NCBI RefSeq assembly: GCF_050920415.1
Contig: NZ_CP169309.1
DNA: 64,000 nt
Source of the DNA: Escherichia coli
GTDB lineage: Bacteria; Pseudomonadota; Gammaproteobacteria; Enterobacterales; Enterobacteriaceae
Direction: 5' to 3' (one strand)
Position 1 is the stretch's first letter, and each line of letters begins with the position of its first letter. Below are positions 3,001 through 6,000 of this stretch, piece by piece. Made by a program: the position numbers.

Positions 3001-6000
3001 AATGGCCACAAAAGCCAGAGCAGTAAATACCGGAGAAGAGGATTTTACGTTAATCAGTAATTACAGGCAGAGATGATAAAAGCCGCGGAACATTGTATGC
3101 AGGAATGTGCTGCGGCATACCGGATAACTGCGTATGTTGTGGAGTTTTATTTGGGGCATATATGGGACAGAAACAGGCCTCAGATAGGCAGTGATATTGA
3201 GATCAGGATATTTTTGAAAAGATGCAACCATTTGAAAAAACATAGAAAACCCCAAGAAAACCACAGGATGAAAAAAAACACCTATGAATCATGGATTTCC
3301 AGTTATATTCGCTCGGCGCAGCGTTAGTGTTTCATGAAATATTTTTTCCTGAATCATCAACGGCAATGGCGTTAATTCTGGCAATGGGAACCTACGGTGC
3401 AGGTTATGTGGCGCGTATTGTCGGAGCATTTATTTTCGGCAAAATGGGCGACAGAATCGGGCGTAAAAAAGTGCTCTTTATTACCATCACTATGATGGGG
3501 ATCTGTACCACCTTAATTGGTGTGCTGCCGACCTATGCACAAATTGGTGTGTTTGCGCCAATTTTGCTGGTGACGCTGCGTATTATTCAGGGGCTGGGGG
3601 CAGGCGCGGAAATTTCCGGTGCCGGTACGATGCTGGCGGAATATGCGCCAAAAGGTAAGCGCGGAATTATCTCCTCATTTGTTGCTATGGGGACTAACTG
3701 CGGAACCTTGAGCGCAACGGCAATCTGGGCCTTTATGTTCTTCATTCTCAGTAAAGAGGAACTGTTGGCGTGGGGATGGCGTATACCGTTCCTGGCGAGC
3801 GTTGTCGTGATGGTCTTTGCTATCTGGTTGCGTATGAATCTGAAAGAAAGCCCGGTCTTTGAGAAGGTTAACGACAGCAACCAACCGACAGCAAAACCTG
3901 CACCTGCTGGTAGCATGTTCCAGAGCAAATCCTTCTGGCTGGCAACAGGGCTGCGTTTTGGTCAGGCTGGTAACTCAGGTTTAATTCAGACTTTCCTTGC
4001 AGGCTATTTAGTGCAGACGTTATTGTTTAACAAAGCAATTCCAACAGATGCATTGATGATCAGTTCGATTCTCGGCTTTATGACCATTCCGTTCCTTGGT
4101 TGGTTATCCGATAAAATTGGTCGCCGGATCCCGTATATTATTATGAATACCTCTGCGATTGTGCTGGCGTGGCCAATGCTTTCTATCATCGTAGATAAAA
4201 GCTATGCCCCGAGCACCATTATGGTTGCACTGATTGTGATTCATAACTGTGCGGTGCTGGGATTATTTGCTCTGGAAAACATTACCATGGCAGAAATGTT
4301 CGGCTGTAAAAATCGCTTTACCCGGATGGCCATTTCTAAAGAAATTGGTGGTCTTATCGCTTCCGGTTTTGGTCCTATCCTGGCGGGTATTTTCTGCACC
4401 ATGACGGAATCCTGGTATCCGATCGCCATTATGATCATGGCATATTCAGTGATTGGTTTAATCTCTGCGCTGAAAATGCCAGAAGTGAAAGACCGTGATT
4501 TAAGTGCACTGGAAGATGCCGCGGAAGATCAACCGCGTGTTGTAACAGCTGCGCAACCTTCAAGAAGTCTGTAAATCCTCCATCCCTTCTCTTACCGGAG
4601 AGGGGATTTTTTATTCATATAACAAAACATGCAGCTTGCCATATTTAAATTTAAGGAATTGTTATGGGAAATAATTTGTTATCAGCAAAAGCGACGCTCC
4701 CTGTTTATGATCGTAATAACCTGGCCCCAAGAATTGTTCATTTAGGCTTTGGTGCATTTCACCGTGCGCATCAGGGCGTGTATGCCGATATTCTTGCTTC
4801 GGAACATTACAGTGACTGGGGATATTATGAGGTCAACTTAATCGGCGGCGAACAGCAAATTGCCGATTTACAACAGCAAGATAATCTTTATACCGTTGCG
4901 GAAATGTCGGCCGATGCGTGGACGGCTCGCGTCGTTGGCGTCGTTAAAAAAGCCTTGCACATACAAATAGATGGCTTAGAAACCGTGCTGGCTGCGATGT
5001 GTGAACCGCAAATCGCGATTGTCTCTCTGACAATCACCGAAAAAGGGTATTTCCACTCTCCGGCGACCGGACAGTTAATGCTCGATCACCCGATGGTCGT
5101 TGCCGACGTGCAAAATCCCCACCAGCCGAAAACTGCAACAGGGGTGATTGTTGAGGCGCTGGCTCGCCGTAAAGCGGCAGGACTTCCCGCATTTACCGTA
5201 ATGTCATGTGACAACATGCCAGAAAACGGTCATGTTATGCGTGACGTTGTCACTTCCTACGCGCAAGCTGTTGATGTAAAACTGGCACAATGGATCGAAG
5301 AAAACGTGACTTTCCCATCAACAATGGTGGACCGTATTGTGCCCGCAGTGACAGAGGATACGCTGGCGAAAATCGAACAACTTACCGGTGTGCGCGATCC
5401 TGCTGGCGTTGCCTGTGAACCTTTCCGCCAGTGGGTAATAGAAGATAACTTTGTTGCCGGACGTCCGGAATGGGAAAAAGCGGGAGCCGAACTGGTTAGT
5501 GATGTGCTGCCTTATGAAGAGATGAAGTTGCGCATGCTCAACGGCAGTCATTCATTCCTGGCGTATCTGGGATATCTTGCGGGATATCAGCACATTAATG
5601 ACTGCATGGAAGATGAAAATTATCGCCGTGCGGCACATGCCTTGATGTTGCAGGAACAGGCGCCGACGCTGAAAGTGCAGGGCGTGGATCTGCAAAATTA
5701 TGCGGATCGACTAATTGAACGCTACAGTAATCCAGCGTTACGCCATCGAACCTGGCAGATTGCGATGGATGGCAGCCAGAAATTGCCACAGCGGATGTTG
5801 GATTCTGTTCGCTGGCATCTGGCGCATGACAGCAAGTTCGATCTGCTGGCGCTGGGCGTCGCGGGTTGGATGCGTTATGTCGGTGGTGTTGATGAACAGG
5901 GAAATCAGATAGAAATCAGTGACCCACTGTTACCTGTTATTCAGAAGGCAGTACAAAGTAGTGCTGAAGGGACAGCGCGCGTCCAGTCATTGCTGGCAAT

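Follow-up and report, generated by a model that had tools for sequence, protein, structure and literature searches.

The prophage end described here has its closest described relatives in Qin of Escherichia coli K-12, the ydfJ prophages of STEC, the phage mEp460 and its kin, and, in overall layout, phage lambda. In K-12 MG1655, Qin (1632277-1652745) is a 20-kb remnant; it has tfaQ, pinQ, ydfK and ynfT after its tail-fibre genes and before ydfJ, and its integrase gene, intQ, is a pseudogene. The annotated Qin reaches 9 bp into the start of the 427-codon ydfJ, and ynfP, a 36-codon fragment, is found at the opposite Qin end, beside rspB. The insertion of Qin removes the 28 N-terminal codons of YdfJ together with the promoter (PMC6379469). 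The STEC prophages at the same gene (PPydfJ) have an att defined as 18-19 bp and a variable cargo locus at the right end (Nakamura et al. 2021, PMC8112680). The same paper also describes “attB-in-PP_2”, a 96-bp secondary attachment sequence, which is present in lambdoid prophages, including those at ydfJ, and is homologous to the ykgJ/ecpE intergenic region. Ahead of attP, phage mEp460 (mEp460_ev081, LR597641) has tfa, a gene for a Ser recombinase and one resembling ydfK. In lambda, the order of attR (POB') is tail-fibre genes, the tI/sib hairpin, P arm and core, with int beyond, and a b region of about 6 kb separates tfa from attP.

We analysed a window of 64,000 nucleotides of E. coli DNA (contig NZ_CP169309.1 of assembly GCF_050920415.1), in which positions 3027-3302 are the attR (POB') of a lambdoid prophage in ydfJ. 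Comparison of sequences gives us high confidence that this end is a cargo-free mosaic, probably uniting an integration module of the Qin/mEp460 type with a lambda-like tail module. Existing annotation and publications already cover the integration at ydfJ, the truncation of the gene and how variable this end of the prophage is; its cargo-free architecture is rare. The prophage, of about 48 kb, very probably inserted into codons 26-32 of ydfJ through site-specific recombination by a tyrosine integrase. One of its modules is the int-xis-attP of the Qin/mEp460 type, and the other a lambda-like J-stf-tfa tail, which has no accessory genes and closes with a spacer of 55 nt followed by a conserved hairpin. 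The remnant of ydfJ now stands apart from its promoter on the rspAB side. The two modules would have been joined by recombination at or beside the conserved block that the hairpin opens, through either plain homologous exchange or the collapse of nested prophages. The features are collected in the table.

Table. Features of the prophage right end and of the adjoining chromosome in the window, with the four att sequences compared.
Feature	Position	Strand	Remarks
stf (side tail-fibre, lambda-like)	1..2492	+	window opens at codon 32; Phage_fiber_2 and gp37_C domains
tfa (tail-fibre assembly), last prophage gene	2496..3026	+	176 aa; Caudo_TAP 1.9e-29; phrog_136 7.9e-72
Non-coding spacer of the tail-fibre module	3027..3081		55 nt; A-run 3077-3081 at its end
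Conserved hairpin	3082..3116		arms 3082-3094 and 3104-3116, loop 3095-3103
Junction segment, from the tail-module hairpin to the att module	3117..3149		33 nt, compared with about 105 nt in Qin/mEp460
P arm of attP (phage-derived side of attR)	~3135..3284		contiguous with core and P' arm in phages
Putative arm-type integrase repeat	3150..3169		TTTGGGGCATATATGGGACA; outer end of the P arm
att common sequence	3285..3302		TGAATCATGGATTTCCAG; contains the ATG of YdfJ Met29; from four-way attB/attL/attR/attP comparison
ydfJ remnant, codons 29-455 (MHS-family transporter)	3291..4574	+	427 aa/codons; an MFS ORF
Terminator-like hairpin 3' of the ydfJ remnant	4582-4607		
attB			...cttgaattcATGGATTTCcagtta...
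attL			...cttgaattcATGGATTTCaagagt...
attR (window)			...ctatgaatcATGGATTTCcagtta...
attP of mEp460			...ctgtgaattATGGATTTCaagagt...

The alignments suggested by an earlier, sequence-only reading of this DNA, to the right end of Qin in K-12 and to uninterrupted ydfJ, were run and place the att core at 3285-3302. This common sequence agrees with the 18-19-bp att of the ydfJ prophages (PMC8112680), with which the window also shares attB. The uninterrupted identity between attB and attP is TCATGGATTTC (3289-3299); it is embedded in the longer, imperfectly shared TGAAT(T)CATGGATTTC(C/A)AG (3285-3302), with ATGGATTTC being found at both attL and attR. Two other carriers of this end provide an independent check: compared with the window, their prophage side is near-identical and their chromosome side differs by about 2%, the change from one to the other falling at 3290. 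Such a pattern of similarity suggests that the phage entered at least two chromosomal backgrounds.

The phage-derived side of this attR is a recognizable P arm. Between about 3135 and the core, the window aligns with the attR of Qin. In mEp460_ev081, PhiR42_1, HannyBb and Tritos, the P arm runs on without a break through the core into the P' arm, and their attP aligns with the window from position 3135 onward at 87-88% identity. In other genomes, the homology of the P arm starts at 3127, 3135 or 3152. At its outer end lies the repeat listed in the table, whose core, TGGGGCATATATGGGACA (3153-3169), is invariant in five diverged P arms, with positions 3150 and 3152 varying. A 21-nt direct repeat of 3150-3169 is located in the P' arm of the mEp460 attP, 207 bp away, with the core in between. 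By likeness to the P1/P2 and P'1-3 sites of lambda, 3150-3169 may be taken as an arm-type integrase site. The assignments of arm, IHF and Xis sites, drawn from repeats and conservation, are all putative. Lambda and the window share the order of elements in attR, and in both of them some 130-140 bp separate the core from the arm-type sites, putative ones in the window, but there is no sequence homology between them.

On the chromosomal side, the gene proved to be truncated at its 5' end, as the sequence-only reading had proposed. Intact ydfJ is annotated as 1,368 nt and 455 codons in an empty-site strain, and the joining of the attL and attR flanks restores a YdfJ of 455 aa; full length in prophage-free strains is thus 455 aa and not 427. 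The 28 N-terminal residues of the full-length protein are absent from the window ORF, which begins at Met29, and in the closest genome PGAP labels ydfJ as “incomplete; missing N-terminus”. The same 427-codon ORF appears in every lysogen at ydfJ because the att common sequence holds the native Met29 codon in frame. It had further been claimed that the first transmembrane helix is missing; the N-terminal truncation stands, but the claim was overstated, since the lost part comprises the cytoplasmic N-terminus and no more of TM1 than its start. By hydropathy, the first hydrophobic maximum of YdfJ spans about residues 24-42, and the match of full-length YdfJ to the TIGR00883 profile (MHS; metabolite/H+ symporter) starts from residue 23. 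Full YdfJ scores 462.9 bits over profile positions 1-400, and the remnant 453.5 bits over positions 7-400, with a cut-off of 443.45. For the placement of TM1, an AlphaFold2 model of the single YdfJ sequence had a pLDDT of 41, too low to be used, and YdfJ has no PDB homologue at E<=1e-10.

The remnant is presumably non-functional through the loss of its promoter and of the first 28 residues. A scan of 2400-4800 gave 0 sigma-70-like sites, compared with 4.1 expected in shuffled sequence, nor can a Shine-Dalgarno sequence be seen ahead of 3291. In annotation, the 427-codon “ydfJ” ORF is better read as a promoter-less remnant. The rspAB-ydfJ-ydfI genes form a sugar-acid gene cluster, putatively linked through work on RspA/RspB to L-gulonate or similar substrates, and this cluster is interrupted in every lysogen. 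In the window, the remnant is followed by ydfI, ydfZ, rspR and ydfG.

Between the end of tfa (3026) and the start of the remnant (3291), we counted 264 bp (3027-3290), close to the roughly 265 bp estimated at first sight. This gap consists of spacer, hairpin, short junction, P arm and core, and leaves no space for cargo. The absence of an invertase or any other cargo gene, also part of the sequence-only reading, held up under search. Between tfa and attR in the window, pinQ, ydfK and ynfT are absent by ORF, Pfam and PHROGs searches. The only ORFs of the gap, 3073-3327 (+, 84 aa) and 3061-3264 (-, 67 aa), have no Pfam or PHROGs match, and PGAP annotates nothing in 3027-3290 in any inspected genome that has the junction. 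Both ORFs were considered as small genes and rejected, given the lack of a family match and the varying frame and length of the ORFs in the homologous block among phages. The region 3027-3140, next to tfa, has no match in the phage collection. The junction is real and not a product of assembly, as 13 complete genomes, ARS-C301 among them, have the same sequence.

The tail-fibre genes to the left of the gap belong to a module that is found elsewhere on the E. coli chromosome. The stf gene of the window is broken by a 1-nt deletion at 746 (one A missing), giving ORFs 4-963 and 960-2492; in the closest record it is unbroken, with 861 aa. The spacer 3027-3081 recurs in near-identical form 3' of tfa where prophages occupy four other sites of the chromosome, and the whole stf-tfa-spacer-hairpin module also ends the prophages at uspF/ompN, tRNA-Ser/hyaA, yecD/aspS and dusA. 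At the first three of these, the chromosome follows tfa without any gene in between; the dusA prophage has a dinI-like gene and the integrase there. Where this module adjoins a different att site, its similarity to the window ends at 3115/3116. One tail module therefore moves among five integration systems.

The other end of the prophage was examined in the closest genome, E. coli MFDS1022581 (NZ_CP169399.1), which matches the window and is not identical to it. There, 48 kb upstream, rspB and a short 5' fragment of ydfJ are followed by ATGGATTTC and then by an integrase and an excisionase. The integrase, which lies outside the window, has 426 aa, is 98% identical to the Int of mEp460_ev081 and contains the Arm-DNA-bind_2 and Phage_integrase domains; the excisionase beside it is of the DUF1233 / phrog_539 type. 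When a synthetic empty site of 600 bp was made by joining the two flanks, it was found contiguous in 2,011 of the 5,426 complete E. coli genomes that made up our survey set, at up to 99.8% identity.

Across this survey set, the ydfJ attachment site is about 59% occupied and 37% empty (the latter with rspB and ydfJ contiguous), which confirms ydfJ as a heavily used lambdoid attachment site. A homologue of the P arm adjoins ydfJ in 3,179 genomes, and 1,966 have the Qin-like end, ydfK-ynfT-attR-ydfJ', with tfaQ and pinQ before it. The junction of the window, together with its P-arm variant (>=95% identity), occurs in 13 genomes, and the variant is confined to them; the P arms of the remaining 3,166 are 80-85% identical to that of the window. 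The O157 right ends at ydfJ bear three nleG-family genes and a dinI-like gene by attR, none of which is present in the window, and other strains differ again. The stretch from the tail fibre to attR is thus a variable cargo locus, shared as such with the STEC prophages, occupied by pin/ydfK in the majority of genomes and by nleG effectors in O157, and empty in the window. The variant without cargo represents a natural minimal right end, in which the need of the phage for DNA outside the P arm is bounded to about 120 bp.

The probable meeting point of the two modules is marked by the hairpin at 3082-3116. A pattern scan of viral contigs found this hairpin in more than 120 IMG/VR contigs, with many unrelated left flanks. 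The copies continue rightward as a conserved, non-coding lambdoid block of about 100 nt with a second stem. In at least five families of integrase, this block is situated 230-440 bp away from the 3' end of the gene. In Qin, L008, L013 and L015, the block shares 81-93% identity with the K-12 sequence between ykgJ and ecpE over 72-152 bp, with a common left boundary. The window keeps the first 40 nt or so of the block, and the remainder is missing or degenerate. Its hairpin resembles ykgJ-ecpE at about 74% identity over 27 nt when aligned by eye, with no BLAST match at E<=1e-3. From its position and homology, the 100-nt block is very probably attB-in-PP_2. The two agree in homology, in length and in their position by the cargo locus, a comparison made with the description of the secondary site in PMC8112680.

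The hairpin is best read as a relic at a module joint. We tentatively suggest, as a possibility, that the ykgJ/ecpE-like block is a hinge of lambdoid mosaicism at the boundary between tail fibre and attachment site, acting both as a shared secondary att site and as a patch of homology. It may have joined one cargo-free tail module to at least five integration modules, with the copy at 3082-3116 being the scar of the fusion. The segment 3117-3149 aligns ambiguously against both Qin-type and yecD-type ends, and the exact joint of recombination can therefore be placed only approximately.

A functional RNA would be a different account of the same hairpin, either as a 3' stem-loop or terminator of the late operon on the + strand, or as a terminator on the int strand like tI/sib of lambda. 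We regard this as rather doubtful. The stem is retained over 42 variants, which range from -7 to -26 kcal/mol. Counting of stem pairs showed that 91.6% of cells are paired and that compensatory changes occur in two of the pairs, a modest covariation, and RNAalifold predicted little structure for the block on either strand. The hairpin of the window folds at -18.1 kcal/mol (+) and -12.0 (-), but its fold z-score is -1.1, and across the variants stability is about equal on both strands. Read on the int strand, the A-run before the hairpin becomes a U-run, and the polarity is that seen in lambda tI, yet this U-run is inconsistent among the copies and missing from many; on the + strand there is no T-run, and the terminator scan returned nothing at the hairpin. 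The analogy with lambda tI/sib, drawn from position and polarity, was dropped on finding that L013, a phage with the lambda Int, has the block directly beside an intact lambda tI, so that the block is not the equivalent of tI.

The searches of RNA families bear on the same account. In sequence, the hairpin equals the one that ends the CssrB consensus of Rfam on its 3' side, but CssrB (RF02799) reaches only 25 bits against a threshold of 76, and does so on the Qin-like locus, where the 3' hairpin alone matches well; the window has no CssrB match. Apart from this hit, the Rfam E-value scans gave sub-threshold noise, and the gathering scan of the window returned only STnc560, elsewhere in the window. 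A literature search with the sequence strings and with CssrB found nothing relevant. The sRNA-17 of mEp460-like prophages was also considered as this element and set aside, as sRNA-17 is reported absent from K-12.

The hinge reading allows for exchange through simple homology, and a more elaborate course through nested prophages appears unlikely. Here, a phage with an att of the ykgJ/ecpE type would have entered the secondary attB block of a Qin-type ydfJ prophage, and the pair would have collapsed to a chimera, with the truncated block as the scar. In its favour, the hairpin is the start of the ykgJ-ecpE-homologous block, this block is found beside attP in at least five families of integrase, and phages inserted in such blocks of ydfJ prophages are reported in PMC8112680. 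Against it, intermediates with nested prophages were not found, the outcome is equally explained by ordinary homologous recombination within the block that the prophages share, and the truncation of the block in the window is not expected from site-specific recombination alone.

The sequence-only reading had placed a pin invertase and ydfK between tfa and ydfJ in K-12, which is borne out by the tfaQ-pinQ-ydfK-ynfT order in MG1655, and it had concluded that the end in the window differs from Qin. It does, and the cause is a different tail-fibre module instead of a loss of genes. Qin and the window have in common the integration site, the core (ATGGATTTC), the 427-codon ydfJ remnant and the integrase family, and their P arms are about 85% identical; they differ in size (20 kb for the Qin remnant, about 48 kb for the prophage of the window), in stf/tfa and in the genes between tfa and attR, which are pinQ, ydfK and ynfT in the former and 0 in the latter. 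That a Qin-type right end simply lost pinQ, ydfK and ynfT through deletion is very improbable: the P arm is homologous to that of Qin, and a linking segment about 70 nt shorter than in Qin/mEp460 means that some local loss took place, but the arm is a separate 85% variant, and the deletion is rejected because tfa is a different gene (176 against 191 aa for TfaQ of K-12, alignable only over the C-terminal 65 aa, at 42% identity) and because tfa, spacer and hairpin are also terminal at four integration sites that never held Qin cargo. Judged by these comparisons, the difference from Qin is a swap of modules and not a deletion, the latter being largely refuted. Phage mEp460, whose attP aligns with the window, likewise differs in the genes that it carries before attP and in the distance of about 105 nt between hairpin and arm site.

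In the closest genome, the portal gene of the prophage is frameshifted and an IS21 is inserted. Taken together with the frameshifted stf of the window, these lesions imply that the prophage may perhaps no longer be mobile.

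The window sequence is that of a near relative of strain MFDS1022581 (NZ_CP169399.1), and the two are not identical. At window 46733/46734 the site is unoccupied (CTGAATTGCTCAATC), where the MFDS1022581 record holds a 1,336-bp IS2 together with a TTGCT duplication. Further differences include four SNPs, two A-run indels and one shuffled unit of a 9-bp tandem repeat (CTTGCTGGT) within a hypothetical gene. The additional A in the window at 62579 lies inside ydeO, a gene annotated as frameshifted in the MFDS1022581 record.

Compared with the same record, the window lacks one A at 746 (GAGACGA[A]CGCC). 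The side tail-fibre ORF (stf), which would otherwise run unbroken for 861 aa, is thereby split into ORFs 4-963 and 960-2492. A frameshift in stf is known from laboratory lambda, and the one in the window is similar to it. Across all related genomes, "incomplete" is the label that PGAP gives to intact stf. In MFDS1022581 itself, the ydfJ prophage bears an IS21 inserted after the lysis genes, with both istA and istB frameshifted, and a frameshifted portal gene. This prophage is probably defective, though its att sites are intact.

Between the cargo region and attP, lambdoid phages commonly contain a non-coding block of ~100 nt with two stems, which shares homology with the region between ykgJ and ecpE in K-12. 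The edges of the block are where homology breakpoints between phage modules cluster, and the block itself is probably the published attB-in-PP_2 (PMC8112680).

In phage mEp460, a stretch of 21 nt within the integrase coding sequence nearly repeats the core region of att, which lies 127 bp away. The two sequences (ACCTGTGAATTATGGATTTCA vs ACCTGTGCATTATTGTTTTCA) are identical at 18 of 21 positions, and by a rough estimate a chance origin is unlikely. The same is seen in MFDS1022581. Additionally, the yecD/yecE-site prophage has in its P arm an arm-type repeat, TTTGGGGCATGTATGGGACAGAA, almost the same as that of the ydfJ type. Such a nearly shared repeat suggests that the two integrases are related and differ in core specificity.

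Coordinates of the features discussed, by record
Feature	Position	Remark
Prophage lesions, MFDS1022581 (L003)	28648-30612; 35139 onward	upstream of window
Block, window	3082-3116	
Block, K-12 (L137)	3225-3335	ykgJ-ecpE
Block, mEp460 (L004)	4875-4968	
Block, lambda-Int phage (L013)	3628-3721	
Core region, L004	5146-5166	attP
Near-copy, L004	5273-5293	int 3' end
Core-like sequence, L003	about 6697-6717	
P arm, yecD/yecE-site (yecD/aspS-site) prophage (L138)	about 3130-3200	
Other differences from MFDS1022581, window	23225, 27742, 48451, 51286, 52070, 62579	
Island, window	45898-53013	Xre-type antitoxin gene; 535-aa hypothetical with 9-bp repeat; IS and HTH fragments
651-aa ankyrin-repeat protein	starts 49353	in island
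fimA-like fimbrial cluster		in island

The island listed here follows hipBA. The sole Rfam match at gathering level in the window is STnc560 at 12633-12846 (+), scoring 277 bits between dgcZ and mgtS, which we take to be the known MgrR sRNA locus.
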